Shown piece by piece: positions 5,420 to 48,250 of a DNA stretch of 64,000 bases. Each line of letters starts with the position of its first letter. Within the stretch, counting starts at the first letter, position 1. The notes beneath the pieces are model-generated. The model saw nothing but the letters and a program-made list of their open reading frames with translations. It was not told the DNA's origin and made no database searches. The stretch comes from Escherichia phage UPWr_E1. The translations under genes were made by a program, and so were the position numbers. Location: the sequence record PP418985.1; one strand, written 5' to 3'.

Positions 5420-5851
5420 ATGGTTTATCCAACTCCTAGTAAGATTTACATCGATGATACCCATTTTATGGTTGATATGATGGGTATCACTTTTAGCGGT
5501 AAGATTAATATTGTAGAATGGGAATTACACGGTCAACCTGTTACTGACTATGACCACTATATCCCTTTTTTGGGTGATGATAATTTTGTTTCGTTTGACC
5601 ATGAAGGTTACATGATCTTTGAACAGTCCGACGTGCCTTTGTATCTTGCAATGATGCAAATTCCTACGAAAGTTTCTGTTGCTGAGGGTGATTGCGATTG
5701 TTGCGGTTGGTATACTGTAACAGATATTAAGTTGCCATCCGGTAAAGAACTTTACAATGAAGACCATTTTGGAAACTGCAATTTTCCGTGTGATTGGGAA
5801 GAATTTTTCGAACTGGTAGAAATTGAAAGAACTTATTTGAGGAAGGGATAA
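5420..5851 (+). CDS. hypothetical Cys-rich protein (143 aa)
   Basis: ATG 5420 after GAGGATTATATA. Confidence 0.55.
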   Translation: MVYPTPSKIYIDDTHFMVDMMGITFSGKINIVEWELHGQPVTDYDHYIPFLGDDNFVSFDHEGYMIFEQSDVPLYLAMMQIPTKVSVAEGDCDCCGWYTVTDIKLPSGKELYNEDHFGNCNFPCDWEEFFELVEIERTYLRKG

Positions 5852-6663
5852 TGAAGAAAGCATTAGGTTTAATTCCCTATACTGGCAATAAGGAAAAGTT
5901 ATTGCCATGTGTTAGTAAGTATTTCCCTAAGCATTATAACCGCTTTGTTGATGCCTTTTGTGGCGGCTTGAGCGTGTCTCTGTACGTCGAAGGTGATGTG
6001 CTGGCTAATGACTATGATCACCGCTTAATTGATGCTTACAAAGCGATTGACGAGTGTCCTGATCCGGTTTCTACGATCAAGCGGATTATTTCCGAAAATG
6101 GTTTGTCTCGTGATGATAAAGATGCTTACATGGCATTCCGTAAGAAGTATAACGAGAATCCAGATCCACTATCGCTGTTTGTGTTGATTCAGCATAGTTT
6201 TAGCAACATTAACCGTCATAACCGGAAGGGAGAATTTAATGCTAATTTTGGTCGCCGGACTTTTAACGAAAACGCGGTAGAGCGTGTCCTGAATTTTAAA
6301 GAAGAAAACAAAGACGGTCGAATCAATTTTACGTCTGGTCGTTATGACGAGATCGAGATCTTGCCCGGTGATTTCGTTTATTTGGACCCGCCGTACCTTA
6401 TCACTTCTGCGGAATATAATAAGTTCTGGAGTGACGAGGAAGAGATTAAATTCTATCAGTGGGTAGAATCTATTATGGCGAGTGGTTTTCAGTTTGGTAT
6501 CAGTAATGTCACACATCATAAGGGAAAGGTAAATGATCATCTTCTTGACTTTATCAAGCGGAATGATTTAAACTGCGTCCTGTTGAATAAGACCTATTGC
6601 CTAGATCGTTCAGGTGGCAAGTCTTCTGATACGCAAGAAGTTTATGTAACTAACGTAGATTGA
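5851..6663 (+). CDS. dam: DNA adenine (N6) methyltransferase, Dam family
   Basis: 270 aa; FCGGLSV (motif I) and DPPY (motif IV); colinear by eye with remembered T4 Dam. Confidence 0.9.
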   Translation: MKKALGLIPYTGNKEKLLPCVSKYFPKHYNRFVDAFCGGLSVSLYVEGDVLANDYDHRLIDAYKAIDECPDPVSTIKRIISENGLSRDDKDAYMAFRKKYNENPDPLSLFVLIQHSFSNINRHNRKGEFNANFGRRTFNENAVERVLNFKEENKDGRINFTSGRYDEIEILPGDFVYLDPPYLITSAEYNKFWSDEEEIKFYQWVESIMASGFQFGISNVTHHKGKVNDHLLDFIKRNDLNCVLLNKTYCLDRSGGKSSDTQEVYVTNVD

Positions 6664-16718: not shown

Positions 16719-17006
16719 ATGTTAGTACACAATGCAATCGCACACATGGTTTACTCTCGATTTGGACGCATGGAAGAAATCAATATTACCGATGCAGATT
16801 TAGATCTGATGCAAGTCGAAGGCCAGACATATCTGAAAAATAACGGCGTGAATATCGGTAAAGCGCGTGTGCGTGAATTGTTGGTTGAATATATTCTCTC
16901 TGAATTTGGCATTAGTGCTTTCGGTGTGAAAGAGATTGCACCTAAGCGCGAAATTTCTGATAAAATGATCAAGAAATGCCAGAAAGCACGACGTAAGGGT
17001 TTCTAA
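16719..17006 (+). CDS. hypothetical protein (95 aa)
   Basis: ATG 16719 after GAGGAATATATT. Confidence 0.5.
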   Translation: MLVHNAIAHMVYSRFGRMEEINITDADLDLMQVEGQTYLKNNGVNIGKARVRELLVEYILSEFGISAFGVKEIAPKREISDKMIKKCQKARRKGF

Positions 17007-18475
17007 TGAAGATTGAAACATTAATCGCATTGCCAGCGGCGGGGAAAACTGATGCTATACTTTCCCACGTCCTAGAGACAAAAGAAAAAGCGGTTATTGC
17101 TTCGCCATCTCGTGTTTTAAGTGAACAATCTTACAATAAGTTTAAAAGAATGGGCGGTCGTGCTGTCTTGATTGATAGCACCAGACTAAGAAGCCTTAAG
17201 ACAGTGCAAGCGTCGATAATGCAATCAGTTAAAGATGGTGCTGGTGTGATATTCATTACACATACAGCGTTATCTAATATGGAGCGTTCAAAAATGTTTA
17301 GTGAATATGCTCTTTACATTGATGAAGTTCCTCAACTGGTTGAATTTAATGAGTATCCGTTTAAGTCTAATCTTGAACTTATCACGAAGCATTGCGAACC
17401 AATCGCCGACGAATCGGAATGCCTACAGAACTTAGTTCTAAAAGACTCTGAGAAGGCCGCTATCAAAGAAAAGATAGAAAGTGCAAAGGATGGTACTGAT
17501 ATGATCGATTCTTCTCTTAGAGGGCTTTATGAGGCGTTATTAGAGAAGAAAATCAACGTTATGGTAAAACATAACGAAGGACACCGGAAGAACGGGTCGA
17601 AAATTGTTTTCTTGAACGATAACAAACACGGTACGTGGGGAGACTTTAAAAAGGTTACGATAGCATGTGCAAATCTCTTTGATACATATAGTGGGAAGTA
17701 TCTACGATACTATGCAAATTGCGATTTTGTTCCTAGTGCGCTAGAATCCAGACTATATTTCAAAGAGTATAAAAATACAGATAGAGTTAACATCATCCTT
17801 ATGACGGACTCTGAACGATGGTCGCGTCACCAGTCAGAAACAAACAATACCTTTGAACGTCTTGTTGATATGGTTAAAAATGAATGTGGTGATGACTTCA
17901 TTTATACCGTGAATCGGGACCGTGAAGCGTGCACAAATGGTATTGGTGAGCGGATACCTTACGGATCTTATGGTCTTAACTCTTACATTCATCATAAAAA
18001 TGTTGCTGTGATGTTCAGCTTTAACCCTCAACGATGGGAGATTGATATTTTAAAAGGTCTTGCTAATAGTTGCGATCTCCCGACAAATGAGTTTTTGAAA
18101 GCGCGTCATGTGTCTGATTATCTGGAACCAGCATTTCAATTATGTTTGCGTTGTAACCTGAGAGACAACGAGAGCAAGGAGAATGTTAATCTATATGTTC
18201 CTGATTGGGCGTTGGTAGATTATCTAAAAACGTTTCTACCTAATGCCAATGTAATAACAGACCGAATGATTCCGCTAGAATGTGGTGAGCGTAAAGGGCG
18301 AAAATCATTTAAAAAGATGTTCGACTTTAACGAGCAAGAGAATGCAAGATTTAACGGATTTAAGTACCGCATGAAGAAAAAAGGAAAAACTCTTGATCCG
18401 TCTGACGGTGAATCAGTAGAGATGGTTAGAGTGTGGATAACTAAGCAAAGAAAGTATAATGGTAATGGGGAATAG
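17006..18475 (+). CDS. P-loop NTPase of unknown function (489 aa)
   Basis: Walker A ALPAAGKT near N-terminus, Walker B-like YIDEV; no T4 counterpart recognised. Confidence 0.6.
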   Translation: MKIETLIALPAAGKTDAILSHVLETKEKAVIASPSRVLSEQSYNKFKRMGGRAVLIDSTRLRSLKTVQASIMQSVKDGAGVIFITHTALSNMERSKMFSEYALYIDEVPQLVEFNEYPFKSNLELITKHCEPIADESECLQNLVLKDSEKAAIKEKIESAKDGTDMIDSSLRGLYEALLEKKINVMVKHNEGHRKNGSKIVFLNDNKHGTWGDFKKVTIACANLFDTYSGKYLRYYANCDFVPSALESRLYFKEYKNTDRVNIILMTDSERWSRHQSETNNTFERLVDMVKNECGDDFIYTVNRDREACTNGIGERIPYGSYGLNSYIHHKNVAVMFSFNPQRWEIDILKGLANSCDLPTNEFLKARHVSDYLEPAFQLCLRCNLRDNESKENVNLYVPDWALVDYLKTFLPNANVITDRMIPLECGERKGRKSFKKMFDFNEQENARFNGFKYRMKKKGKTLDPSDGESVEMVRVWITKQRKYNGNGE

Positions 18476-18515: not shown

Positions 18516-19049
18516 GTGTCTGATTATGTAAACAATAAAGAGCTTTACGAAGAAATTTGTCGTTGGAAACAACGAATTGCAGCCGAAGGTCGACAAGTGC
18601 CAATGAGCGATCAAATCGGCCTAGCAATTATGCAAATCTCTAAAAATCTATCACGGCGTTTTAACTTTTCTGGCTATAGTCAAACATGGCGCGAAGAAAT
18701 GATCGACGATGGAATCGAAGCGGCGGTCAAGGGTTTGATTAATTTTGACGAGACAAAGTATAAAAATCCTCATGCTTACATCACGCAAGCGTGCTTTAAT
18801 GCTTTTGTGCAGCGCATTAAAAAAGAAAGAACAGCAACCGCCGCAAAATACAAATATTTTGTGCATCATGTATATGACGAACGCGACGCTGATATGTGCC
18901 AGATTGCTGATGAGGCATTCATACAGGACATTTACGATAAGATCAACAACTACGAGGAATCGGTCAATAAACCGAAAGCGCCAAAGGTTGAAGATGTATT
19001 GACCGAGGAATTGCCTAGCCTGGACCAATTTTATGAGATTGAAAATTAA
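18516..19049 (+). CDS. 55: late-transcription sigma factor gp55
   Basis: Long colinear stretch with remembered T4 gp55 (FNFSGY..., [29 protein letters not shown]); GTG start 18516 after GAGGGTG. Confidence 0.9.
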
Positions 19050-19266
19050 CATTTCCCGTTTGCTGGAAGAAGCAGAGTTTGAAACTGACCTTGTGCCGTA
19101 TTTCGCCAAATTATTTTTGAGAGATTGCGGCGTTCCGGTGGTTATCGATCCGTGCAATATCAAATCACCGGATCTTGAGGTCTTTACGGGTACAATCTCA
19201 CATAGCTATAATGTATCAGAAGATGAATTTTCTTTAATCATCGACTATATCCCAGAGGTAGAATAA
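19033..19266 (+). CDS. hypothetical protein (77 aa)
   Basis: ORF overlapping end of gene 55. Confidence 0.45.
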
Positions 19267-19267
19267 T

Positions 19268-19555
19268 ATGACTTACGATGAACAACATGACCAGATTGCA
19301 GTGAATGAAGTAGACAAAGTACAAGCAGAACTAGAGGCGAAAGCCGCTAAGAAAGCGGAAAAGATCTTGCGTAAGAACTCGCGAGAGATTGCACGCCTTA
19401 AGCGGTGGGCTGAACAAGCTATCATCGATGATAACCGTGATGCGTATATCTACGCTATCGGAAAATTACGTGATATCTACAAACAGCCACACACGCCAGA
19501 ACTGCTTTCTGCTATGTGGGTTAGTACACGGCAAACGGTATTAAGTATGCTGTAA
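19268..19555 (+). CDS. hypothetical protein (95 aa)
   Basis: ATG 19268; weak terminator follows. Confidence 0.55.
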   Translation: MTYDEQHDQIAVNEVDKVQAELEAKAAKKAEKILRKNSREIARLKRWAEQAIIDDNRDAYIYAIGKLRDIYKQPHTPELLSAMWVSTRQTVLSML

Positions 19556-19576
19556 TGGCTTTATAAGGGAGACTCT

Positions 19577-19600
19577 GAAAGGGGTTTCCCTTTTTATTTT
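19577..19600 (+). terminator. possible terminator
   Basis: Short GC stem around GGGGTTTCCC followed by TTTTTATTTT. Confidence 0.4.
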
Positions 19601-19604
19601 TCTG

Positions 19605-19613
19605 TGATATAGT
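19605..19613 (+). promoter_or_regulatory. extended -10 promoter element (TGaTATAGT) upstream of gene 47
   Basis: TG 19605-19606, TATAGT 19608-19613; no good -35. Confidence 0.4.
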
Positions 19614-19645
19614 GAGAGCATCGAAAACGAAGAGAGGAAGAGAAT

Positions 19646-20671
19646 ATGAAAATTTTGCTTTTGGGTGATCTGCATACTGGTATCGGTGGCGATGATCCGT
19701 GGGTGCATGAGTATATTCTTGATACCATCAAGAAAGCGGTTGAATACTCCAAAGAGCATAATATTAAGACATGGATTCAAACAGGGGATTGGTTTGATTG
19801 CCGAAAAGCAATTACCCATGAAACCATGAAATTTAACCGTACTAAGGTCATCCCGCTACTGGAAGAGGCTGGTATTACTTGTTATACCACAGTCGGGAAT
19901 CATGATATGTTTAAACGAAACAAGATCCAGCCTAACGCACCGCGTGAAGTGTTAAGCCAGTATGATTGCATTAAGGTTATTGATAAACCGGAAACAGTCA
20001 CCTTTGATGGTGTATCATTTGATCTGTTCCCGTGGTTTTGTGATGACAATAAATCAGAGATTTTAGAGTTTATTCAAAACTCATTCAGCGAATATTGTGT
20101 AGGCCATTGGGAATTGTCTGGCTACTATTTCTATAAAGGGCTAAAATCCGAAGGTTATAGCGCGGACTTCCTCAAGAAATACCGTGAAGTGTTTTCCGGT
20201 CACTTTCATACTATCAGTGATGGCGGTAACGTAACATATATTGGTACACCATACACACTAACGGCGGGTGACGAAAACGATCCGCGTGGTTTTTGGGTAT
20301 TCGATACCGATACACACAAAAAAGAGTTTATTCAGAATGACAAAACTTATCATGTGCGTATCACTTACCCGTCAGATGATAAAATCGATGTAGAACGCTT
20401 TAAGGGGCTTAGTGTGCGTCTTATTGCAACGGTTGCTGATAATGGGTTAACTAAGTTAGAAAGCGCGTTAGAGGCCGTTGTACACAAGCTAAAAGTGGTC
20501 CATAAGCTGGAGAGTAGCGCATCACAGGAAACAGGTGTTATTGAAGTTAAAAGCACTATTCAGATGGTCTATGAATATCTGGAAGAACAAAACCTAGAAC
20601 CGGAAGAACTTGCGGCGGTCAAGCGTATTTCTGATGAACTTTTAGCCGAAGTAAATAGCGCAAAAAGTTAG
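19646..20671 (+). CDS. 47: recombination/repair nuclease subunit gp47 (SbcD/Mre11-like)
   Basis: MKIL.LGD.H phosphoesterase N-terminus, GNHD, GHFH motifs; colinear with remembered T4 gp47. Confidence 0.9.
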   Translation: MKILLLGDLHTGIGGDDPWVHEYILDTIKKAVEYSKEHNIKTWIQTGDWFDCRKAITHETMKFNRTKVIPLLEEAGITCYTTVGNHDMFKRNKIQPNAPREVLSQYDCIKVIDKPETVTFDGVSFDLFPWFCDDNKSEILEFIQNSFSEYCVGHWELSGYYFYKGLKSEGYSADFLKKYREVFSGHFHTISDGGNVTYIGTPYTLTAGDENDPRGFWVFDTDTHKKEFIQNDKTYHVRITYPSDDKIDVERFKGLSVRLIATVADNGLTKLESALEAVVHKLKVVHKLESSASQETGVIEVKSTIQMVYEYLEEQNLEPEELAAVKRISDELLAEVNSAKS

Positions 20672-27549: not shown

Positions 27550-30228
27550 ATGTATTTTCTGTCATGTGAGCGAGTAGGTGATAAGATCTACGAGCGTTAT
27601 ATTGATGATGCTGGACAAGAACAAGAGCGTTACGTTGAATATACGCCAACTTTATTTCATCATGCCGCGCCTGGTATGGTTACAAATTATAAAGATATCT
27701 ATGGCAAGCCTTGCATTGCTAAAAAATTCCCATCTATGAACGAGGCCAACAAATGGCGTAAAAAGATGGGGGAAATGGGGCAAGAGGCACTAGGGATGGA
27801 TGATTTTATCATCTCCTATCTGTCCGATACGTATAAAGGAGAGATTCGATATGACCGAAATAAAATCCGTGTAGCATGGGTTGATATTGAGGTCACTGCC
27901 CCAGAATTTCCTAAACCAGAAGAAGCGAAATATCCTATCGATGCAATTACGCATTATGATTCCGTACATGATCGTTTCTTTGTATTTGATTTGAAAGGAA
28001 AAAACGGTGAATCTTGGGAAGCAAGCAAGTCTATTCTTCGCCCAGATATTGTAGAACGTGTTGTTTATAACGTCTATGATACAGAAGATGAATTGCTGTT
28101 AGAATACATCCGATTCTTTGAGGAAAACCGACCCGTTGGTTTCACTGGCTGGAACACAGAAACATTCGATATTCCATATATCATTAAACGTATCAGTAAT
28201 AAGTTCGGAAGTAGAACCGCTAACCGTCTAAGCCCGTGCGGTAAGATTAAATCCCGAATCTCACAGGATGATTTTGGCAACGAGCGTGAAGCATTTACGA
28301 TCATGGGGATCGAAAGCCTTGACTACATTGACTTATACAAGAAATTTAGCTTTACGACTCAACCAACATATGCATTAGATTATGTTGCTGAATATGAGAC
28401 AGGAATCGGTAAGGTTGATTATGATGGTCCGTTAAAGAAATTGCGTGATGACAACCATCAACTTTACATCGATTATAACATCGGCGACGTTGATCGTGTG
28501 CTGGCGATTGATAAAAAGCGTGGATTTATCGATCTTGTGTATAGTCTATGTTTCTATGCAAAGATTAAATTTAACCATGTTTATAACCCGATGAAAGTGT
28601 GGGATGCTATTATCTTCGGATCTCTGAAAGCTGAGGGTAAAGTAGTACCGGAAAATAAGATACAGCCTAAGCAGACATATCCTGGCGCATTCGTAAAAGA
28701 GCCAGTGCCTAATGCTTACCGTTGGATGATGAGCTTTGACTTAACAAGTCTGTATCCATCTATTATTCGACAGGTTAATATTTCGCCTGAAACAATCGCT
28801 GGATCTTTTGATGCTGCACCGATGCACGAGTATATCAATAAAACTGCACCACGTCCGAGTGATGAGTATTCTTGCTCGCCTAACGGATGGATGTATCGAA
28901 AAGATATTCATGGTATCGTACCGATTGAGATTAAAAAGGTATTCGATCAGCGTAAGCAGTACAAAAACATGATGTTGGCGTGTGATCGCAATGCTGAACT
29001 CTGTAAAGCGATTCTACACGATGAAAATCATGTTTATGGGGGAACCATTAGCTATAGCGTTGAAGTGCGTCACGACTTCGATGAAGCGTTTAAATCTATG
29101 CTTTCGGAATTAAGCAAAGATGCCTTAGAGAAATTGCTGGAAGAATGTAAAGACGAGTCGATCTTGTGCAATACAAACCAGCTTTCTCGAAAAGTTTTGA
29201 TCAACTCCCTTTATGGTGCGTTGGGGAATCCTAAATTCCGTTTTTATGATCTCCGTAACGCTAGTGCGATCACACTGTTCGGTCAGCTTGCAATTCAGTG
29301 GATTGAGCGTAAGATTAACGAATACTTAAACGAGCTTTGCGGAACAACCGATTTTGCATATGTTCGTTATTGTGATACTGACTCCGTTTATGTGCTGGTT
29401 AACAATGTTGTTGATAAGGTTGGCGGGGAAGATCGTTTCGACGATACCGAAAAACTTGTTGACTTCCTTGATAATTTCGGTAAACATCGAATGGAACCTA
29501 TTATCGACAAGGGATATCGCGAGTTATGCGAGTACATGAACAACTACGAGCACTTGATGTTTATGGACCGTGAGGCAATTGCTGGTCCTCCGTTGAAATC
29601 TGCGGGTATCGGTGGATTCTGGACTGGTAAAAAGCGTTATGCTCTTAATGTTTGGGATATGGAAGGAACGCGCTTTGCTGAACCTAAGCTAAAAATCATG
29701 GGCTTGGAAACGCAACGTAGCTCCACCCCTAAAGCATGTCAGAAATCACTGAAAGAATGTATTCGCCGTATGTTGCAGGAAGGGGAAGAATCGCTACAGG
29801 AATACTACGGTATTTTTGAGCAAGAATTTAGAAAACTTGACTATCTTGAGGTTGCTGCGGTATCATCTGCAAACAACCTACAGAAATACAGCGATTCAAA
29901 CGGGTATCCGATTAAGGGGTGTCCGTATGCGGTTAAGAGTGTGTTGTGTTATAATCGTAATGCTCGAAAATTCGGACTAGATCCGATTCGTGAAGGCGAG
30001 AAGGTTATGATTGTACCGCTTAAAGATCGAAATCCGTTTGGAGAAATCTGTTTTGGTTGGTTGTCCGGTACTCGTATTCCTCCAGAAATTGAATCAGAGG
30101 TGTTAAAGTGGTTAGACTGGCCTTTGTTGTTTAATAAGACTTTCGTCAAACCACTGGAGAACATTACCACGGCTGCAAAGCTGCAATATGAAAAAGTGGC
30201 ATCTCTTACAGACCTGTTTGACATTTAA
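27550..30228 (+). CDS. 43: DNA polymerase gp43 (family B, with 3'-5' exonuclease)
   Basis: About 892 aa; exo motif region, SLYPSII (pol motif A), DTDS (motif C); colinear with remembered T4 gp43; ATG 27550 after GTGAAGGAG; no intein or intron. Confidence 0.95.
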   Translation: MYFLSCERVGDKIYERYIDDAGQEQERYVEYTPTLFHHAAPGMVTNYKDIYGKPCIAKKFPSMNEANKWRKKMGEMGQEALGMDDFIISYLSDTYKGEIRYDRNKIRVAWVDIEVTAPEFPKPEEAKYPIDAITHYDSVHDRFFVFDLKGKNGESWEASKSILRPDIVERVVYNVYDTEDELLLEYIRFFEENRPVGFTGWNTETFDIPYIIKRISNKFGSRTANRLSPCGKIKSRISQDDFGNEREAFTIMGIESLDYIDLYKKFSFTTQPTYALDYVAEYETGIGKVDYDGPLKKLRDDNHQLYIDYNIGDVDRVLAIDKKRGFIDLVYSLCFYAKIKFNHVYNPMKVWDAIIFGSLKAEGKVVPENKIQPKQTYPGAFVKEPVPNAYRWMMSFDLTSLYPSIIRQVNISPETIAGSFDAAPMHEYINKTAPRPSDEYSCSPNGWMYRKDIHGIVPIEIKKVFDQRKQYKNMMLACDRNAELCKAILHDENHVYGGTISYSVEVRHDFDEAFKSMLSELSKDALEKLLEECKDESILCNTNQLSRKVLINSLYGALGNPKFRFYDLRNASAITLFGQLAIQWIERKINEYLNELCGTTDFAYVRYCDTDSVYVLVNNVVDKVGGEDRFDDTEKLVDFLDNFGKHRMEPIIDKGYRELCEYMNNYEHLMFMDREAIAGPPLKSAGIGGFWTGKKRYALNVWDMEGTRFAEPKLKIMGLETQRSSTPKACQKSLKECIRRMLQEGEESLQEYYGIFEQEFRKLDYLEVAAVSSANNLQKYSDSNGYPIKGCPYAVKSVLCYNRNARKFGLDPIREGEKVMIVPLKDRNPFGEICFGWLSGTRIPPEIESEVLKWLDWPLLFNKTFVKPLENITTAAKLQYEKVASLTDLFDI

Positions 30229-30245
30229 GATAAAGTGTGTATAAT
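30218..30245 (+). promoter_or_regulatory. sigma70-type promoter overlapping the stop of gene 43
   Basis: TTGACA 30218-30223; TATAAT 30240-30245 (16-nt spacer). Confidence 0.65.
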
Positions 30246-30272
30246 GGCGGGTGTTGGGTGACGATACCCGCC
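30246..30272 (+). other. 5'-leader hairpin downstream of promoter 30218-30245
   Basis: GGCGGGT 30246-30252 / ACCCGCC 30266-30272, 13-nt loop. Confidence 0.5.
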
Positions 30273-30289
30273 AACGTGAGAAATATACT

Positions 30290-30478
30290 ATGAGAGACAT
30301 TGAAAAGATTAAACGTGAACGTGAGGAAGGCATAGAGCATTTCAAGAAAGTTCACGGAAATCACAGCAACGAAGTATTTGTGACGATCGATGTTGGTGCG
30401 ATGAAAAAGTTAATTCAAGAGCACTACAAAGATCGAATAACAATGAAGCAATTAAAGTATTACGGATTAACTGAATAG
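30290..30478 (+). CDS. hypothetical protein (62 aa)
   Basis: Promoter 30218-30245 overlaps gene 43 stop; 5'-UTR hairpin 30246-30272; ATG 30290. Confidence 0.5.
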   Translation: MRDIEKIKREREEGIEHFKKVHGNHSNEVFVTIDVGAMKKLIQEHYKDRITMKQLKYYGLTE

Positions 30479-30489
30479 AGGTATTAATA

Positions 30490-31560
30490 ATGTCTGTACT
30501 GGAAAAACTGAAAAAGAACTCTACCCTGAAAACTACTGCGGTACTGTCTAAATCCAGCTTCTTTAACGAAAAAACAAATACTCGCACTAAGATCCCGATG
30601 CTGAATATTGCGTTTTCTGGCGATCTTAAAAAAGGCTTTCAATCTGGTCTGATTTTCTTTGCTGGTCCGTCTAAGCACTTTAAATCAAACATGGGATTAA
30701 CTTGTGTTAGTGCATACATGAAACAGAATCCCGATGCGGCTTGTTTGTTCTTTGATTCTGAGTTCGGTATTACTTCCGCATATCTGGAATCTATGGGTGT
30801 AGATCCTGATCGCGTGGTGCATGTTCCAATCAAGAACATCGAAGAACTTAAATTTGAAATTATGAACCAGCTTGAGCAAATTACCCGCGAAGATAAAGTG
30901 ATTATCTTTATCGACTCAATCGGTAACTTGGCAAGTAAAAAAGAAGTTGAAGACGCGATTAATGAGAAATCCGCACAGGATATGACGCGAGCTAAAGCAC
31001 TTAAAGGCTTGTTCCGTATGGTTACGCCGTATCTGACTATGAATGATATCCCGTGCATCGCTATTAACCACACTTACGAAACGCAAGAAATGTTTAGTAA
31101 GACCGTTATGTCCGGCGGTACGGGCGCGATGTATTCAGCCAATGAAGTTTTCATTATTGGTCGTCGTCAGCAGAAAGAAGGAACCGAAATTACTGGTTAT
31201 GATTTTATTCTGAATGCGGAAAAATCACGAACCGTTAAAGAAAAATCTAAGTTCCCGATTAGCGTAACATTTAGCGGTGGCATCGATCCTTATTCCGGTT
31301 TGCTGGAGTTGGCTGTAGAGTTAGGCTGGGTAGTGAAACCGTCAAACGGCTGGTATTCTCGTTCAATCCTGAATACTGAGACCGGAGAGATGGAAACCGA
31401 AGAACGCAAGTTCCGTGCTAAAGAAACCAATAGCATTGAGTTCTGGAAACCACTTCTGACAAACGATAAGTTTAACGAAGCAATCAACGATCATTATAAG
31501 CTGGGGCAAGTGATCAGCGACGAAGCAGTTGACAAAGAAATCGAAGATATGTTAGCATAA
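30490..31560 (+). CDS. uvsX: recombinase UvsX (RecA-like)
   Basis: 356 aa; GPSKHFKSN Walker A, CIAINHTYETQEMFSKTVM; colinear with remembered T4 UvsX. Confidence 0.92.
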   Translation: MSVLEKLKKNSTLKTTAVLSKSSFFNEKTNTRTKIPMLNIAFSGDLKKGFQSGLIFFAGPSKHFKSNMGLTCVSAYMKQNPDAACLFFDSEFGITSAYLESMGVDPDRVVHVPIKNIEELKFEIMNQLEQITREDKVIIFIDSIGNLASKKEVEDAINEKSAQDMTRAKALKGLFRMVTPYLTMNDIPCIAINHTYETQEMFSKTVMSGGTGAMYSANEVFIIGRRQQKEGTEITGYDFILNAEKSRTVKEKSKFPISVTFSGGIDPYSGLLELAVELGWVVKPSNGWYSRSILNTETGEMETEERKFRAKETNSIEFWKPLLTNDKFNEAINDHYKLGQVISDEAVDKEIEDMLA

Positions 31561-31572
31561 CAATGGTAGTAA

Positions 31573-31595
31573 AGGGGCTACGTGCCCCTTTTTCA
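31573..31595 (+). terminator. intrinsic terminator after uvsX
   Basis: GGGGC-tacgt-GCCCC then TTTTT. Confidence 0.75.
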
Positions 31596-31615
31596 TATCT
31601 AGAGAGGATTATATT

Positions 31616-31933
31616 ATGGATAAGAAACCAACAAGTTTAGAAGAAGCACACGGCTTGATTCAAGAAGCAATGAAGACAGTTATTCAGGAACTGATAATTG
31701 TTGATGAAGAGGGAGAGCATCATATTGTCTATATTCATAATGTTGAATACGATCCAGACACTAAAGGTATTGTGGTCGACTACTCCACGCCGTCAGATCG
31801 TGATGTGGTATATCCTCACGTCATTAAGGCGTTAACAGCGCAGATCAAAGAAGCAGAAGAAAAGTTGAAAAAAGAAACTTTCTGGTATAAACTCAAGACC
31901 TTTGTTATGCGTGTAGTTGGGGGCTATGTATGA
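31616..31933 (+). CDS. hypothetical protein in gene 40 position (105 aa)
   Basis: ATG 31616 after AGAGGATTATATT; terminator 31573-31595 upstream; positional only. Confidence 0.5.
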   Translation: MDKKPTSLEEAHGLIQEAMKTVIQELIIVDEEGEHHIVYIHNVEYDPDTKGIVVDYSTPSDRDVVYPHVIKALTAQIKEAEEKLKKETFWYKLKTFVMRVVGGYV

Positions 31934-33342
31934 TTAAAACTATCTTTTCACAGTTGATTTACAATGGCGCATTCTTTACGAATGTATGGCCTCACCTTAA
32001 AGCGGACTACTTCACCGAAGACGAAGAAAAACTGATTTATAAGCTGATTAAAAAGCACGTAGACGAATATTCCAATATTCCTACGCCAACTGCATTACAG
32101 ATTGCTTTAGACAAGGAGAGAGGCAATCAGACAACATATGAAGGGGCTAAAACTCTTCTTGATTCGCTTGAGAATACACCGGAAGACCTTGATTGGTTAA
32201 TGAAGGAAACCGAAAAATTTATTCGTGACCGTGCCATGTATAATGCAATGTCACGGGCGCTAGAGATTCAAGCGAACGCACAACTACCAAAAGAGAAACA
32301 GAATAAGAAATTGCCTGGCGAGGGAGCTATTCCTGAGATCATGCAGGAAGCACTATCCATTACGTTTGATTCTGATGTAGGTCATGACTGGTTTAATGAC
32401 TTTGAAAAACGATTCTTGCTATATCAGACTAAGGCGAATAAGATCCCGTTTAAGCTGCCGATGTTGAATAAAATCACGAAAGGTGGGGCAGAGAAAAAGA
32501 CATTGAATGTTTTACTCGCTGGTGTAAACGTTGGCAAATCATTGGGTTTGTGTTCTCTTGCTGCGGACTATATGGAATGCGGTTATAATGTTCTGTATAT
32601 CTCAATGGAGATGGCAGAGCACGTAGTAGCAAAACGTATTGACGCAAATTTGCTTGACATTACCTTAGATGAATTGGATAATGGCAATGTTTCCTTTGCT
32701 GAATATTCCGCACGCATGAAACGTGTCAAGAATAAGAAAGCAGGAGAACGTCCAATCGGCAAGCTGATGATCAAGCAGTATCCGACTGGTGGCGCGAACT
32801 CCAACCACTTTGAGGCGTTAATGAATGAATTGCGACTCAAGAAACAGTTTAAACCTGATGTTGTGATTGTTGACTATCTGGGGATTTGCGCATCGTCTCG
32901 TTTGCGTGTATACTCTGAAAATAGTTACACACTAGTTAAAGCTATTGCGGAAGAATTGCGCGGATTTTTTGTTAAGTGGGATGTTGTTGGTTGGACTGCG
33001 GCACAGACTACCCGTGCTGGTTGGGACGCATCGGATCTTAACATGAGTGATACCGCTGAATCAGCAGGTCTTCCGGCTACAGCCGATTTTATGTTGGGTG
33101 TAATTGAAACCGAAGACCTTGCAAAAATGGGTGTTCAATTACTCAAGCAGATTAAATCTCGTTACGGTGATAAGAACTACTATTCACGGTTTAACGTTGG
33201 TGTGAAAAAAGGAAATCAGCGTTGGTATGAAGTTCCAAACCAGATCGCAGATCAGGAGAATGCACAAGTTAAACCACAAAGCGCACAGCAAGCAGAGAAA
33301 CGAGAAAAACTCGACGAGCTAGCAAATAACATGACTTTCTAA
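31930..33342 (+). CDS. 41: replicative DNA helicase gp41 (DnaB-like)
   Basis: 470 aa; Walker A GVNVGKS in C-terminal RecA-like domain; position after uvsX. Confidence 0.9.
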   Translation: MIKTIFSQLIYNGAFFTNVWPHLKADYFTEDEEKLIYKLIKKHVDEYSNIPTPTALQIALDKERGNQTTYEGAKTLLDSLENTPEDLDWLMKETEKFIRDRAMYNAMSRALEIQANAQLPKEKQNKKLPGEGAIPEIMQEALSITFDSDVGHDWFNDFEKRFLLYQTKANKIPFKLPMLNKITKGGAEKKTLNVLLAGVNVGKSLGLCSLAADYMECGYNVLYISMEMAEHVVAKRIDANLLDITLDELDNGNVSFAEYSARMKRVKNKKAGERPIGKLMIKQYPTGGANSNHFEALMNELRLKKQFKPDVVIVDYLGICASSRLRVYSENSYTLVKAIAEELRGFFVKWDVVGWTAAQTTRAGWDASDLNMSDTAESAGLPATADFMLGVIETEDLAKMGVQLLKQIKSRYGDKNYYSRFNVGVKKGNQRWYEVPNQIADQENAQVKPQSAQQAEKREKLDELANNMTF

Positions 33343-33348
33343 TAAAAT

Positions 33349-33364
33349 GCGCCCTACGGGGCGC
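33349..33364 (+). other. intergenic hairpin after gene 41 (no T-run)
   Basis: GCGCCC-tacg-GGGCGC. Confidence 0.45.
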
Positions 33365-33392
33365 TGGTGAATGATTTGATAGGAGATATAAC

Positions 33393-34028
33393 ATGATCGC
33401 TAATGCTTTACCGCCAAAATGGATCGTAAGTCGTTTTTATACTCTAAAGGAAGGTAACGCGCCTGATGGTCGTCCGATCCGAGATCTGTTTCTGGAGATG
33501 ACTACAGCCGAAGCACAGTTTTATAATGATCTGACAGACGATAAGCCATTTCTCGTAAATTCGGTGGACCTTGATGGCAATGTCACATCAATCATCACAC
33601 ATGGTGGGGGAGTGAAAAATATTACTTCTCTGCGTGATCACGGTTGGGAAATTTCTTGTGTATTTCCTGCGGATGTACGCGGATTCTTTGATGAGGTATC
33701 TGATATTAAAGTAAATGCACTGGAACCATATGACGAGATCCCACCACTGAAAGAAGAAAAAGAGTTGACACCGGAAGATGTAGGTAGTACACTACACCCT
33801 GACCTATTTAAGAAGATTAGCGGTTTATGGACTGTTACCCTGTATCCAACCGTATTAGGTTTAGAATTGGGTATGCCAACTTATTCTGATATTGATAATT
33901 GGACTAAGCACATCGATAAAGATGTTGAAAAACAGCGAAACAATGCTAAAATGCAACTTAAAGAGAAACGCAAAGATCTTGAACGACAACTGAAAGAAAC
34001 AAAACATTTGCTTTCTACGTTCGCTTGA
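33393..34028 (+). CDS. repeat-domain family protein (divergent copy, 211 aa)
   Basis: PKWIVSRFYTL...DDKPFLV...DG.V...VRGFFDEV; ATG 33393 after AGGAGATATAAC. Confidence 0.55.
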   Translation: MIANALPPKWIVSRFYTLKEGNAPDGRPIRDLFLEMTTAEAQFYNDLTDDKPFLVNSVDLDGNVTSIITHGGGVKNITSLRDHGWEISCVFPADVRGFFDEVSDIKVNALEPYDEIPPLKEEKELTPEDVGSTLHPDLFKKISGLWTVTLYPTVLGLELGMPTYSDIDNWTKHIDKDVEKQRNNAKMQLKEKRKDLERQLKETKHLLSTFA

Positions 34029-34036
34029 CCTATAAT
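34007..34036 (+). promoter_or_regulatory. promoter-like element (TTGCTT -35 or MotA-box-like TTTGCTTTC, then TATAAT)
   Basis: TTGCTT 34007-34012; TATAAT 34031-34036; TTGACC 34025-34030 abuts the -10 with zero spacer. Confidence 0.4.
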
Positions 34037-34058
34037 GAAACTCTAAGGAGACTATATT

Positions 34059-34433
34059 ATGAAAAATATGATTACACCGGAAGATGTAGCATTTAAAACC
34101 GCAAATAACGGAGACATTCTTATCTTTATTAACGGTAAACATGCTGGTATGGTTGAACCGGAAGGACGCTGGGGAGTCGCCGAACTTTATGATGTGGCTG
34201 GTGTAGATCCGAAAACTGCAATTGTTTTTCTGGCGGATAAAGATCAAATGCGTCGAAAAATTTCTGCGCTCTATAATGAAGCAGTATATTTCTACGAACC
34301 GTTTCATCGTATTAAAACGATCTCCCGCGTGACTCGAAAAGACGTTAACGCTTGTGTTATCAAGATTGTAGAGAATCAGGATAAACTGACGAAAGACCAG
34401 ATTGTTGACTTACTGAAAGAGATTATTCTATGA
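34059..34433 (+). CDS. hypothetical protein (124 aa)
   Basis: Promoter-like TTGCTT...TATAAT 34007-34036; ATG 34059. Confidence 0.55.
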   Translation: MKNMITPEDVAFKTANNGDILIFINGKHAGMVEPEGRWGVAELYDVAGVDPKTAIVFLADKDQMRRKISALYNEAVYFYEPFHRIKTISRVTRKDVNACVIKIVENQDKLTKDQIVDLLKEIIL

Positions 34434-34606
34434 TTGGCTTTAAGCAGTTTGTTGAAGAAAATAAACTCAAAGAAGATATGACCGCTGGCGATGCTGGCGG
34501 CAATCCTGAGAAGATCGCAGCAGGGGAAACGAGCGGATCTATTACCAATCGTGGACCTAGCGTGGTGGGTAAAGAAAAACGCAAGAAGGAGAAAGACGGT
34601 GCTTAG
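34430..34606 (+). CDS. hypothetical small protein (58 aa, not in ORF track)
   Basis: ATG 34430 overlapping upstream stop; Gly/Lys-rich. Confidence 0.3.
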   Translation: MIGFKQFVEENKLKEDMTAGDAGGNPEKIAAGETSGSITNRGPSVVGKEKRKKEKDGA

Positions 34607-34757
34607 TATCATCATGTTTATCGTTGGCTTGCTGTCCGCTATTATCGGTGTTGTTGTTTTCGGATTATCTGGACACAAAACAAAAACAGAAAAGTTATCC
34701 GAGATCACAATGTATGTTGGTGTAGTTCTCATTTTGTTGTCGGTGGCGCTTAAATGA
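34599..34757 (+). CDS. hypothetical small membrane protein (about 52 aa, GTG start)
   Basis: GTG 34599 after AAGGAG; two hydrophobic helices; track ORF 34491-34757 has a long unlikely N-extension. Confidence 0.35.
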   Translation: MLSIIMFIVGLLSAIIGVVVFGLSGHKTKTEKLSEITMYVGVVLILLSVALK

Positions 34758-34957
34758 TTACGATGAAATGTCTTAAAAGCACATATGCACTTTTTGAAGC
34801 CGGAAAAGAATATGAATTTACAGAACTTGATCCGGTAGGCCGTTTTCGTGTATTCTCTTACACATCGCCAGATGGTAGTGTCTATAAATTTGGCTTAGAT
34901 GAAAACGGAGAGAATGAAAATGAAAGTGTAGGAACTTTCATGAAATTTGAGCTATAA
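34754..34957 (+). CDS. hypothetical protein (67 aa)
   Basis: ORF; ATGA overlap. Confidence 0.45.
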   Translation: MITMKCLKSTYALFEAGKEYEFTELDPVGRFRVFSYTSPDGSVYKFGLDENGENENESVGTFMKFEL

Positions 34958-34966
34958 GAGGTTATT

Positions 34967-35995
34967 ATGATTTACTACGCAGATTATGAAATAGCGGAAA
35001 AAGCCATATACGGCGAACGAAATTTTAAACGGTTGCATACTAGCTCATTTACGCTGGTCTGTAGTTGTCCGATCTGCGGTGACTCAAAGAAAAATCATAC
35101 TCAAGCGCGATTCCGTATCTATACCTATAAGGATAGTTTGCGTTGTGGCTGTTTCAACTGTAACTACAATCAGCCGTTAGGTGAATTTCTCAAACAGTAT
35201 AAGCCGGACCTATTCAGGGAATGGCTTATGGAGAGACGGAAGGAACAAGGCGACCACAAGAACACCACGTTCAAGCCACTGAAAAAGGTAGAAAAGCCGG
35301 AGATTAAGAAAGTGCAAACATTGCCTTTCTGTGAAAGATTAGATACTCTTCCGGCTAATCATCCTATAATAAAGTATGTCAGTGATCGTTGCATTCCCCA
35401 CGATAAATGGGATCTTCTGTATTTCACGAGAGAATGGCAAAAGGTAGCAAATCACATTAAGGCTGATACTTTTAAGAATCCGCAACCTGAACCGCGTTTA
35501 GTGATTCCTATCTTTAACCGTGAGAACAAGATAGAATCCATTCAGGGGCGAGCATTGAGAAAGGATTACGGAAAGACCAAATATATGACGATTAAAACTC
35601 ACGAGTTAGCGAGTAAGGTCTATGGTCTTGAACGCGCCGATCCGAGAAAGCCAGTGTATTTCTTAGAAGGTCCGATCGATTCATTGTTTATTGATAACGG
35701 GTGTGCAATTACTGGCGGTACTTTGGGATTAGATGAAATCCCTTTCCCAGACCAGCGAGTGTTTGTACTTGATGCGGAACCACGGTCAGCCGATACAATG
35801 CACCGACTGGAAAAGTTTATCAATGCAGGGGAAAAGATTGTTTTGTGGGATCGTTGTCCGTGGCATTCTAAAGACGTTAACGCCATGATTCAGGACGAGG
35901 GCGCTACACGCGACCAGATCATGGAATATATCAAAGAGAACACCGTACAAGGTCTGATGGCTAAAATGCGGTTTATGAAATATTGTAAATTTTAA
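34967..35995 (+). CDS. 61: DNA primase gp61
   Basis: 342 aa (T4 gp61 is about 342 aa); N-terminal zinc ribbon CPICGDSKKN...C..C; position after 41. Confidence 0.85.
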   Translation: MIYYADYEIAEKAIYGERNFKRLHTSSFTLVCSCPICGDSKKNHTQARFRIYTYKDSLRCGCFNCNYNQPLGEFLKQYKPDLFREWLMERRKEQGDHKNTTFKPLKKVEKPEIKKVQTLPFCERLDTLPANHPIIKYVSDRCIPHDKWDLLYFTREWQKVANHIKADTFKNPQPEPRLVIPIFNRENKIESIQGRALRKDYGKTKYMTIKTHELASKVYGLERADPRKPVYFLEGPIDSLFIDNGCAITGGTLGLDEIPFPDQRVFVLDAEPRSADTMHRLEKFINAGEKIVLWDRCPWHSKDVNAMIQDEGATRDQIMEYIKENTVQGLMAKMRFMKYCKF

Positions 35996-36009
35996 TTAAT
36001 GAGGTGAAT

Positions 36010-36528
36010 ATGTCAGAATTTAATTCTTGTGCTGGTCTGGTTAACGAAAAAGATATTAACGCGGCTATCGCCGCATATCATCACGCGATTGCAGAAGGTA
36101 AAGATCCGTTTCAGGTGATGCTAGAAATGCAAACTGGTTTGCAGGTTGCATTATCCGAAAAATTTGATTGGGTCCCAAATCCAACTAAGCTAGAGACTTG
36201 CGGTGAAATGCTGGATTGGATGCAACGGATGGATGACGCTATCGCAGACGAAACACGAGAGCTTTACACATCGCTGGGTGGAATGTCCAATGGTAAAGAT
36301 GCAAGTGCAATCTGGAAAATGTGGAAAAAGAACCACGGGGAAGCGCGAGCGCGTAAATTCTCTGAACTGTCACCAGAAGATCAGCTTGAAGTGAAATTTG
36401 AATTTGTGGACGCGATCCACTTCATTCTGTCAAAGATGATCCCGCTGGGTATTGACGCTCAAGAACTCTTTATTCTGTACTATCTGAAAAATGCTGAAAA
36501 CTTCGCCCGTCAAGAACGCGGCTACTAA
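36010..36528 (+). CDS. 56: dCTP pyrophosphatase gp56 (MazG-like)
   Basis: Colinear with remembered T4 gp56 (KDPFQVMLEMQ, SPEDQLEVKFEFVD, LYYLKNAENFARQERGY); ATG 36010. Confidence 0.88.
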   Translation: MSEFNSCAGLVNEKDINAAIAAYHHAIAEGKDPFQVMLEMQTGLQVALSEKFDWVPNPTKLETCGEMLDWMQRMDDAIADETRELYTSLGGMSNGKDASAIWKMWKKNHGEARARKFSELSPEDQLEVKFEFVDAIHFILSKMIPLGIDAQELFILYYLKNAENFARQERGY

Positions 36529-47229: not shown

Positions 47230-47547
47230 ATGATTGATATGAAAGTTACTTGCGAAAGTGCACATGTTGAAGTAGAACAGGTATTATATCCATCTCGACG
47301 CGTTACGGTGACTTTAGACGATGTGGATCTGGCTAATAATGTTACCGTTGAAGATATTGCTAACGAGTATGACCATGATGAACTGTTAGATGCAATCCCT
47401 GAACATGTTGTGATCCAGCACGTAGTAAGCAATAATGATCCATCGACTTTCATTAAAGAATATGGCGCTGATGAAATGCTCGATGAAATTGGTGAAAAGA
47501 TTGTTATTGCATGGCTTGAAAACAACGGCTATACTGTAGAACAATAA
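47230..47547 (+). CDS. hypothetical acidic protein (105 aa)
   Basis: ATG 47230 after AGAGGAATTAATT; terminator 47556-47578 follows. Confidence 0.55.
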   Translation: MIDMKVTCESAHVEVEQVLYPSRRVTVTLDDVDLANNVTVEDIANEYDHDELLDAIPEHVVIQHVVSNNDPSTFIKEYGADEMLDEIGEKIVIAWLENNGYTVEQ

Positions 47548-47555
47548 TAAACATA

Positions 47556-47578
47556 GGCCGCTTTGCGCGGCCTTTCTT
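47556..47578 (+). terminator. intrinsic terminator
   Basis: GGCCGC-tttg-CGCGGCC then TTTCTT. Confidence 0.7.
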
Positions 47579-47592
47579 AGAGGGAATACATT

Positions 47593-47904
47593 ATGACGGT
47601 CACGATTATTACCAAATACGACGACGAAAATGTGATTTACGGTGATGTGGTTGTTGTTCACGGTCGTAGCATGAAAGTTACTGGTAATTGTAAAGATGGT
47701 GCTATTATTTGCGGTGAATTGGTGAGAACCGTCAATCCTATCACCGACGAACAAAAGCGAGACATTATCAGAAAACTTAAAGACAGTGGATATTGTAACG
47801 TTGTGGTGATTCAGGAAAAATTTGAAGTAGGCCACTTATACACAAATCAGAAAACAATTCCGGTATCAATGGTTAAAGGCGGTTATAATGCTAGGTCATT
47901 CTAA
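47593..47904 (+). CDS. hypothetical protein (103 aa)
   Basis: ATG 47593 after AGAGGGAATACATT. Confidence 0.55.
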   Translation: MTVTIITKYDDENVIYGDVVVVHGRSMKVTGNCKDGAIICGELVRTVNPITDEQKRDIIRKLKDSGYCNVVVIQEKFEVGHLYTNQKTIPVSMVKGGYNARSF

Positions 47905-48250
47905 AATAGAAGATTGCTCATTCAGAGCAATGAAAGATGATTTTTCGGTCCTGTACGCGTCTATCCGAGAATTGTTTGTAGATTTTAAGCAATTCAGGGA
48001 ATACAAAGGCGTTAAGATGCGGGAGTGGGTATTCTGGCCTTTCTATATCATTACTCTGTTTTCTATGGTATTTTGTTTTGTCGGGATCACTATCGCTAGT
48101 TTTGTCACTTGCGTTTTCCTGATTATCCGGTGTATCATGTTTGCTTTGATTGCTGCCCCGTTTATTGTTTCAATCCTTCCGTTAAAATGGCTATTGGATT
48201 GGGCTGATAAATCTGATAAAGTAAAGAATGTGATTTGTAAGCGTGTATGA
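47888..48250 (+). CDS. hypothetical membrane protein (120 aa)
   Basis: Two or three hydrophobic helices; immediately upstream of gene 52. Confidence 0.45.
   Translation: MLGHSKIEDCSFRAMKDDFSVLYASIRELFVDFKQFREYKGVKMREWVFWPFYIITLFSMVFCFVGITIASFVTCVFLIIRCIMFALIAAPFIVSILPLKWLLDWADKSDKVKNVICKRV

Follow-up and report, generated by a model that had tools for sequence, protein, structure and literature searches.

The subject of this work is gene 56, which encodes a dCTPase homologue, and the short junction between gene 43 and uvsX that precedes it in a 64,000-nucleotide stretch of the Escherichia phage UPWr_E1 genome (sequence record PP418985.1). The whole stretch, called the window in the following text, makes up 64 kb of a phage genome of about 165 kb. 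The features lying at the junction, together with gene 56 itself, are listed below, with ORF standing for open reading frame and aa for amino acids.

27550..30228, plus strand: gene 43, DNA polymerase, an intact ORF that matches the RB49 gene 43 coding sequence
30218..30245, plus strand: sigma-70 early promoter TTGACA-16-TATAAT, with 12/12 consensus matches, annotated in RB49 as a hypothetical early promoter
30246..30272, plus strand: 11-bp G/C-rich stem-loop immediately 3' of the -10 box, of -21.5 kcal/mol
30290..30478, plus strand: 62-aa ORFan, RB49ORF025c / JK32_00026 (phrog_12120, E 3.5e-41)
30490..31560, plus strand: uvsX recombinase, with 63% identity to T4 UvsX, PF21134 and PF00154
36010..36528, plus strand: gene 56, homologue of the d(C/U)TPases of the dimeric dUTPase family, 172 aa, full length

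The end of gene 43 (30228) and the start of uvsX (30490) are separated by 261 bp, and the ATG-initiated frame of 62 aa is the sole ORF in this gap, just as the sequence-only reading of this DNA had stated. In T4, the same interval carries imm.1, imm, 42 (dCMP hydroxymethylase), b-gt, and segA; of these, that reading had named imm, 42 and beta-gt correctly and had omitted imm.1 and segA. Its statement that neither a dCMP hydroxymethylase nor a glucosyltransferase lies between 43 and uvsX was found to hold for the junction as well as for the whole window, and the gene 56 that it had recognised is indeed present in full length, aligning with T4 gp56 over 171 aa at 49% identity (E 2.5e-50).

By the genome-scale nucleotide identity and the synteny with RB49, the window belongs to the genus Krischvirus. 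In the megablast comparison of the region from the 43-uvsX junction to gene 56 and of both its flanks, the nucleotide identity was 97.8% to JK32, 97.0% to RB49 and 95.3% to ECD7, and from 58 to 78 Krischvirus records matched at 95-98%, all of them colinear; since no matched database record is identical to the window, it adds one more phage to the RB49 group. The local blastn comparison with the reassembled complete genome of RB49 (164,018 bp) placed the window on the RB49 positions from 47,674 down to 1 and then from 164,018 down to 147,340, with the colinear blocks of 90-97% identity covering all of the 64 kb but some 4.5 kb, which consist of tail-fibre and ORFan sequence. No segment of the window left unmatched to RB49 in this comparison was big enough for a hidden modification module.

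The genes for the synthesis and glucosylation of hydroxymethylcytosine (hmC) were sought in the 64-kb window and the complete RB49 genome by tblastn (E<=10), with the queries from T4 and RB69. Neither subject yielded a homologue of gp42, alpha-gt, beta-gt or imm; the T4 gp42 query reached only the RB49 thymidylate synthase gene td, at E 0.008. The hidden Markov model (HMM) of the gp42 family, built from T4 gp42, Aes508 gp42 and the RB69 5-hydroxy-dCMP synthase and run on all 2,206 six-frame fragments of both sequences, gave RB49 td, at E 4e-9, as its sole hit. As td is a paralogue of about 23% identity, its recovery indicates that the search was sensitive enough, and a cryptic gene of the thymidylate-synthase family was rejected, the HMM yielding td alone. 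RB49 td itself (locus L004, 12870-14102, outside the window) is 410 aa long because its thymidylate synthase domain is interrupted by an insertion of ~130-140 aa, with the catalytic and dUMP-specificity motifs being intact despite this insertion. It carries "QRSVDSFLGLPFN", the 'LGLPFN' Asn signature of the dUMP-specific thymidylate synthases, at the place where T4 gp42 has Asp; this dUMP-type Asn and the Thymidylat_synt Pfam score of 284 bits rule out td as a disguised dCMP enzyme. For the DNA glucosyltransferases, no tblastn match better than E 0.1 was obtained in the window or RB49, a search which a highly divergent glycosyltransferase would escape. Three further features of the window mark the places where other members of the T-even system would be expected by synteny.

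19033-19266, plus strand: a-gt.5 homologue, between genes 55 and 47
19268-19555, plus strand: a-gt.4 homologue, between genes 55 and 47
47230..48250, plus strand: rIIB-52 interval, with three ORFans where T4 has denB and ndd

The alpha-gt slot beside the retained a-gt.4 and a-gt.5 is empty, and the searches for denB, ndd and arn in the window and RB49 gave no homologue, denB and ndd being missing between rIIB and 52. The RB69 arabinosylation genes and the ORF that replaces gene 42 in the phage VR26 have no homologues in the window and RB49 either, and the ten largest unannotated ORFs of the window contain no modification-related or glycosyltransferase Pfam domain. The homologues of motA and asiA were also not found in the window or RB49, hence the T4 middle-transcription apparatus is absent. 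Taken together, the T-even cytosine-replacement network, namely gp42, the glucosyltransferases, denB, ndd and arn by the searches in the window and RB49, and alc by the published surveys, is missing from the lineage and not relocated. The possibility raised by the sequence-only reading, that gene 42 lies elsewhere in the genome, is contradicted by the complete-genome search run on the 97%-identical RB49, in which neither gene 42 nor alpha/beta-gt was found by tblastn and the gp42-family HMM, and, for the genus, by Table 4 of PMC2993671, Table 4 of PMC12115623, and PMC13390438.

The lack of gene 42 along with the retained gene 56 in the RB49-type phages is already known and explained in the literature. 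According to Petrov et al. 2010, gene 42 occurs only in the T-even, JS98, RB69, CC31, Acinetobacter and 44RR-type phages and is absent in the RB49 and RB43 types, while gene 56 is a 'quasicore' gene, near-universal in the T4 relatives with or without gene 42 and present in both these types (PMC2993671). In the few phages without gene 56, a host-like dUTPase supplies the 'essential dUTPase function' instead, and the role of gp56 was listed as 'increases dCMP pool; provides dUMP' (PMC2993671). RB49 and Krischvirus have been described as possessing the dCTPase-dUTPase and denA, without the hmC, denB, ndd and alc genes (Nikulin and Zimin 2021, PMC8056088; PMC12115623), with the profile given in the 2025 survey as 56+, hmC-, denB-, denA+, ndd-, alc- (PMC12115623). 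Regarding the DNA chemistry, HpaII and NheI were shown to cleave the DNA of RB49, which was treated as unmodified (Yaung et al. 2014, PMC4041780), and canonical cytosine was determined by high-performance liquid chromatography-mass spectrometry (HPLC-MS) in the Krischvirus TB34, which is restricted by bacteriophage exclusion (BREX) (2026 study, PMC13390438). These two results support the pairing of a dCTPase gene with absent cytosine modification, one of the alternatives considered previously from the letters of the window. T4 makes cytosine DNA only with gene 56 inactivated (the amE51 genotype of T4GT7, summarised in PMC12115623).

The gp56 protein of the window is 100% identical to that of RB49. 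It matches phrog_173 at E 5e-37 and, with 24.8 bits at a cut-off of 22.9, the family PF08761 (dUTPase_2), on which T4 gp56 scores 25.4 bits. The direct phmmer search of gp56 against the PDB gave no matches; the profile of 12 gp56 sequences reached the Campylobacter jejuni dUTPase 1W2Y marginally, at E 0.04, with motif IV (E..E..D..HF) and motif V (K..N..R..GY) aligned to the 1W2Y residues 69-86 and 155-187. Among the 39 invariant columns are those of the acidic metal ligands, of the His-Phe couple and of the C-terminal K/N/R/Y, and in the 12 reference sequences the residues D80, E81, E84, E127, E131, D134, H137, F138, K160, N164, R167 and Y172 are invariant. The roles of these motifs as metal ligands, the His-Phe deoxyribose clamp and phosphate binding are taken from PMC5608427 and PMC12524310. 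Because the residues of all three kinds are invariant, gp56 is predicted to be almost certainly active, and its assignment to the family relies on the PF08761 score above the threshold, the full-length orthology to T4 gp56 and the presence of the residues of motifs II, IV and V. The single-sequence AlphaFold2 model of gp56 was all-helical, but unreliable at the mean predicted local distance difference test (pLDDT) of 43.

Cytosine exclusion, which the sequence-only reading had carried over from T4 as the purpose of gp56, is not a valid premise for this phage: gene 56 occurs in nearly all T4 relatives regardless of gene 42 (PMC2993671), and T4 gp56 and the window gp56 both fall into the dimeric dUTPase family PF08761. 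Since the window gp56 works without gp42, it cannot be the cytosine-exclusion arm of an hmC pathway.

The correlates of the gene-42 status were sought in gp56 of 12 reference sequences and 78 IMG/VR loci, among which the residue 141 (four positions after His137) was aligned in 79 sequences. It is Asn in 64 of the 79, including homologues of only 37% identity and the gp56 of Gaprivervirus, a genus which lacks gene 42 but is positive for alc and denB. In the gene-42-less clade of Krischvirus, Pseudotevenvirus and Slopekvirus, this residue is not Asn: it is Ser in the window (codon 36430-36432), Ile in the KFS-EC type, and Cys in the RB43/Slopekvirus type, the only other exception being a 30%-identical outlier with Ser (L098). 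Ser also stands at the equivalent position of the dUTP-specific C. jejuni enzyme. The gp56 proteins of the same clade share W-V-P in the alpha1-alpha2 loop and Ala77 beside motif II, and in the 78 IMG/VR loci the gene-42 family is absent wherever the RB49/RB43-type gp56 occurs with 43 and uvsX in view. The residue 6 (Ser versus Glu) was rejected as a discriminator of the gene-42 status, with one IMG/VR locus (L029) combining Ser6 with a gene-42-family gene and other loci having Val6.

Two alleles of gp56 are found in Krischvirus, one carried by about 39 records, at 95-100% identity to the window protein, and the other by about 20, at only 60-80%, and the genomes with the divergent gp56 are otherwise ~95% identical. 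KFS-EC, with gp56 of 69% identity (L008, 2410-3519), has a 590-bp unannotated gap separating genes 61 and 56. This gap and the two alleles may be the trace of a gene conversion driven by a homing endonuclease similar to T4 segF.

The window thus very probably derives from an RB49-type phage with ordinary cytosine in its DNA, devoid of the hmC and glucosylation genes, in which gene 56 has been retained as a general nucleotide-pool enzyme. The conserved essential role of gp56, for which the support is good, would be the conversion of dUTP and dUDP to dUMP, by which uracil would be kept out of DNA and Td would be fed, and some dCMP may also be provided for Cd; gene 56 would then be retained because its lineage-wide job is the management of the pyrimidine pool. 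As cytosine DNA in T4 needs the knockout of gene 56, a cytosine-DNA phage cannot afford the dCTPase of the T4 level, and it is about an even bet that the dCTPase activity of the RB49-type gp56 is attenuated or altered, sparing the dCTP pool. The pattern of the residue 141, the WVP loop and Ala77 would fit such a shift away from dCTP.

Several points weigh against this interpretation or its parts. The carriers of the residue-141 and WVP-loop variants form a single clade, hence the signal is confounded with phylogeny; the putative base-contacting residues of motif I, Q41 and Q45, do not differ from those of T4 gp56, so that a clean switch in base specificity is not evident. RB49 retains the dCMP deaminase, which needs a source of dCMP, in line with some retained dCTPase/dCDPase activity, and for every RB49-type gp56 the proposed attenuation is read from the protein sequence. 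Only 64 kb of the ~165-kb genome are visible and no record is identical, therefore the absence of gene 42 elsewhere is deduced from the relatives. Finally, one 2026 paper reports hmC-type bases in the Krischvirus SAP (PMC13390438).

The best surviving alternative, possible though rather doubtful, also assumes canonical cytosine, but with a substantial dCTPase/dCDPase activity retained in gp56, which together with Cd and Td would make dTMP from cytosine nucleotides in the manner of the host Dcd and Dut. The dCTPase activity would then belong to the function of the enzyme in this phage instead of being a relic. Such a balancing of pools would agree with the presence of cd, td, frd and gene 1 in RB49, with the A+T content of the genome of ~60%, with the motif I residues identical to those of T4 gp56, and with the dCMP- and dUMP-providing role listed by Petrov et al. 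(PMC2993671). However, the dCTPase of the T4 level is incompatible with cytosine DNA, as is known for T4GT7 amE51 (PMC12115623), and it is exactly the clade without gene 42 that has lost the conserved Asn141.

Two other alternatives depend on the SAP report. The DNA of SAP, which is 99.96% identical to TB34, was reported to contain hmC and gentiobiosyl-hmC and to be cleaved by BrxU; according to the SAP authors, the genes of the pathway were not found and the analysis of single-nucleotide polymorphisms (SNPs) gave no lead, and the nucleoside profile of SAP is that of seven Tequatrovirus phages isolated during the same classes (PMC13390438). SAP and TB34 differ solely by indels of one base and by 15 SNPs, each C>T or G>A (Table S5, PMC13390438). 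In the first 34,000 nucleotides of SAP (OZ034687.1, L019; 1-34,000), all the SNPs (8/8) fall on the central base of CCSGG, where TB34 reads CCWGG; they hit half of the CCSGG sites of this segment (8/16), and RB49 agrees with SAP at seven of the eight. Among the indels checked, five of six abut short homopolymer runs, and six equivalents mapped on the window are situated within runs of A7-8 or G5. Such a distribution suggests base-calling or assembly artefacts, possibly at a site-specific methylated cytosine motif, and not divergence, so the two assemblies probably describe one genome, and the artefact-like character of the differences leaves no genetic basis for the differing chemistry. A mixed or mislabelled DNA sample would be the simplest reading of the SAP chemistry, and the hmC claim should be tested again before a new pathway is accepted on its basis. 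In the 64-kb window, GATC occurs 359 times, CCWGG 25 times and CCSGG 11 times.

It is highly improbable that gp56 is a vigorous cytosine-excluding dCTPase combined with a non-canonical cytosine made by a pathway unrelated to thymidylate synthase, as reported for SAP. The modified bases and the BrxU cleavage of SAP (PMC13390438) and the intact catalytic motifs of gp56 would be explained by it; however, the SAP profile equals that of the seven co-isolated Tequatrovirus phages, three enzymes would be needed with no homologues in SAP, the almost identical TB34 has canonical cytosine, the sequence differences between the two look like base-calling artefacts, and HpaII and NheI cleave the DNA of RB49. 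An equally slight chance is given to the view that some Krischvirus truly use hmC-type bases by means of enzymes without recognisable similarity to gp42 or the known DNA glycosyltransferases, with gp56 removing dCTP and the window encoding a part of such a pathway. The presence of gene 42 and glucosyltransferases in the remaining ~100 kb of the genome, with the DNA containing glucosyl-hmC as in T4, has next to no probability, for although only 64 kb are visible of a phage identical to no sequenced record, the complete RB49 genome lacks such genes, the genus-wide surveys find none, denB and ndd are missing where synteny would place them inside the window, with no arn homologue, and in the gene-42-positive phages examined 42 stands beside 43, where only 261 bp are available here.

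The presence of gene 56 does not mark a phage as one that replaces cytosine, and the annotation pipelines should not infer hmC DNA from the "dCTPase" label. The loss of the otherwise conserved Asn141 near the His-Phe clamp in the RB49/RB43 lineage offers an entry point to the dCTP versus dUTP preference of the family.

The 43-uvsX junction of the window contains a regulatory element of its own. The -35 box of the promoter at 30218-30245 lies inside the last codons of gene 43, thus overlapping the gene end, and the stem-loop that follows has a z-score of -5.0, none of 200 shuffles being equally stable. The 62-aa ORFan downstream is charged, without a membrane segment, is 98-99% identical to RB49 and JK32 at the nucleotide level, and gave no Pfam match. 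The promoter-early stem-loop (PeSL) with an ORFan has been described as a modular shuffling unit in RB49 and phi1 (Arbiol et al., PMC2839356), and all its elements by that definition, i.e., the consensus promoter, the G/C-rich stem-loop and the ORFan downstream, are found at 30218-30478; judged from these elements, 30218-30272 is a putative PeSL-type mobile regulatory cassette ahead of the 62-aa ORFan. The adjoining uvsX differs from that of RB49 by 20 synonymous and 0 nonsynonymous codon differences.

A gene of the gene-42 family sits beside 43 in T4, RB69 and Aes508, while in RB43 and the Slopekvirus-like Klebsiella phage RCIP0009, both without gene 42, 43 directly abuts uvsX. As the content between 43 and uvsX differs among the phages, the junction is a site of variable cargo; from the compared gene orders it appears plastic, with 'empty or ORFan' as its state in the cytosine-DNA lineages. 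The Gaprivervirus VR26 retains imm, 42.1, segF and a T4-like gp56 with Asn141, and an unrelated ORF of 167 aa (L011, 6061-6564) occupies there the exact place of gene 42, which could be a lead for cytosine modification in Gaprivervirus.

The other genes annotated in the window are as follows.

5851..6663, plus strand: Dam-type N6-adenine DNA methyltransferase, with 45% identity to T4 Dam (PF02086, E 1.2e-30)
31616..31933, plus strand: gene 40, head vertex assembly chaperone (PF11113, E 6e-25; RB49 annotation)
31930..33342, plus strand: gene 41, replicative helicase (RB49 and JK32 annotation)
33393..34028, plus strand: Dc2, Krischvirus-specific (RB49 annotation; phrog_16187; no Pfam match)
34059..34433, plus strand: Dc1 (RB49 annotation; phrog_16174)
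34430..34606, plus strand: gp61.1 homologue, with 48% identity to T4 gp61.1 (E 3e-13; phrog_1823)
34614..34757, plus strand: 47-aa ORF RB49ORF018c (RB49 annotation; phrog_18360)
34754..34957, plus strand: 67-aa ORF RB49ORF017c (RB49 annotation; phrog_9181)
34967..35995, plus strand: gene 61, DNA primase (RB49 and JK32 annotation)

The Dam methyltransferase noticed in the sequence-only reading is present, at a distance from the gene 43-56 region, and has the DPPY catalytic motif at residue 179 and the features of the D12 class; it would methylate GATC independently of the cytosine pathway. The T4 gp61.1 query also matched RB49 gp23 (major capsid) near the N-terminus (RB49 93440-93562, E 7e-7), the motif common to gp61.1 and this gp23 segment being of the G-x-TSGAV-x-x-GP type. 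The 489-aa ORF RB49p044 (17006-18475), lying between 55 and 55.2, gave a weak match to the DEAD-box helicase N-terminal domain, of 25.7 bits, just below the cut-off, the sole Pfam hit among the ten largest unannotated ORFs.

In comparison with the known systems, the window is closest to RB49, Phi1 and JSE (Krischvirus, 'pseudo-T-even'), to which it is 95-98% identical at the nucleotide level, with the same gene order from nrdD to rIIA including the 62-aa ORF, a 100% identical gp56 protein, Dam adjoining nrdC, and the common lack of 42, a-gt, b-gt, denB, ndd, motA and asiA. RB49 differs from it by the HNH homing endonuclease gene RB49p040 between 47 and a-gt.4, with none in the window (19555-19646), and by the divergent sequences of the distal tail fibre/adhesin and a few ORFan segments; JK32 differs by the NUMOD3 endonuclease gene that splits gene 43, which is unsplit in the window. 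Compared with T4, where dam adjoins gene 56, the window gp56 is of similar length (172 versus 171 aa), stands likewise beside the primase gene 61, and shares with T4 gp56 its five motifs, QxxxQ, DExxE, the latch GGMS...K.W, ExxxExxDxxHF and K...N..R....Y, but it has Ser141 for the T-even Asn, the W54-V55-P56 loop, Ala77 for Tyr or Cys, and a two-residue insertion after residue 11. With the dimeric dUTPases of PF08761 (C. jejuni 1W2Y/2CIC, trypanosomatid and staphylococcal-phage enzymes) it shares motifs IV (E..D..HF) and V and Ser at the fourth position after His, although the C. jejuni enzyme is longer (229 versus 172 aa) and the match is marginal by both the Pfam score of 24.8 bits and the PDB profile E-value of 0.04. 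The strict dUTPases have Gln-Asn in motif I, where the window gp56 has Gln-Gln. The RB43/Slopekvirus types resemble the window in having gene 56 and denA without 42, and a gp56 with the WVP loop, Ala77 and a residue other than Asn at 141, and differ from it in that 43 abuts uvsX, gp56 is only 51-53% identical to that of the window and has Cys141, and ndd is present (PMC12115623).

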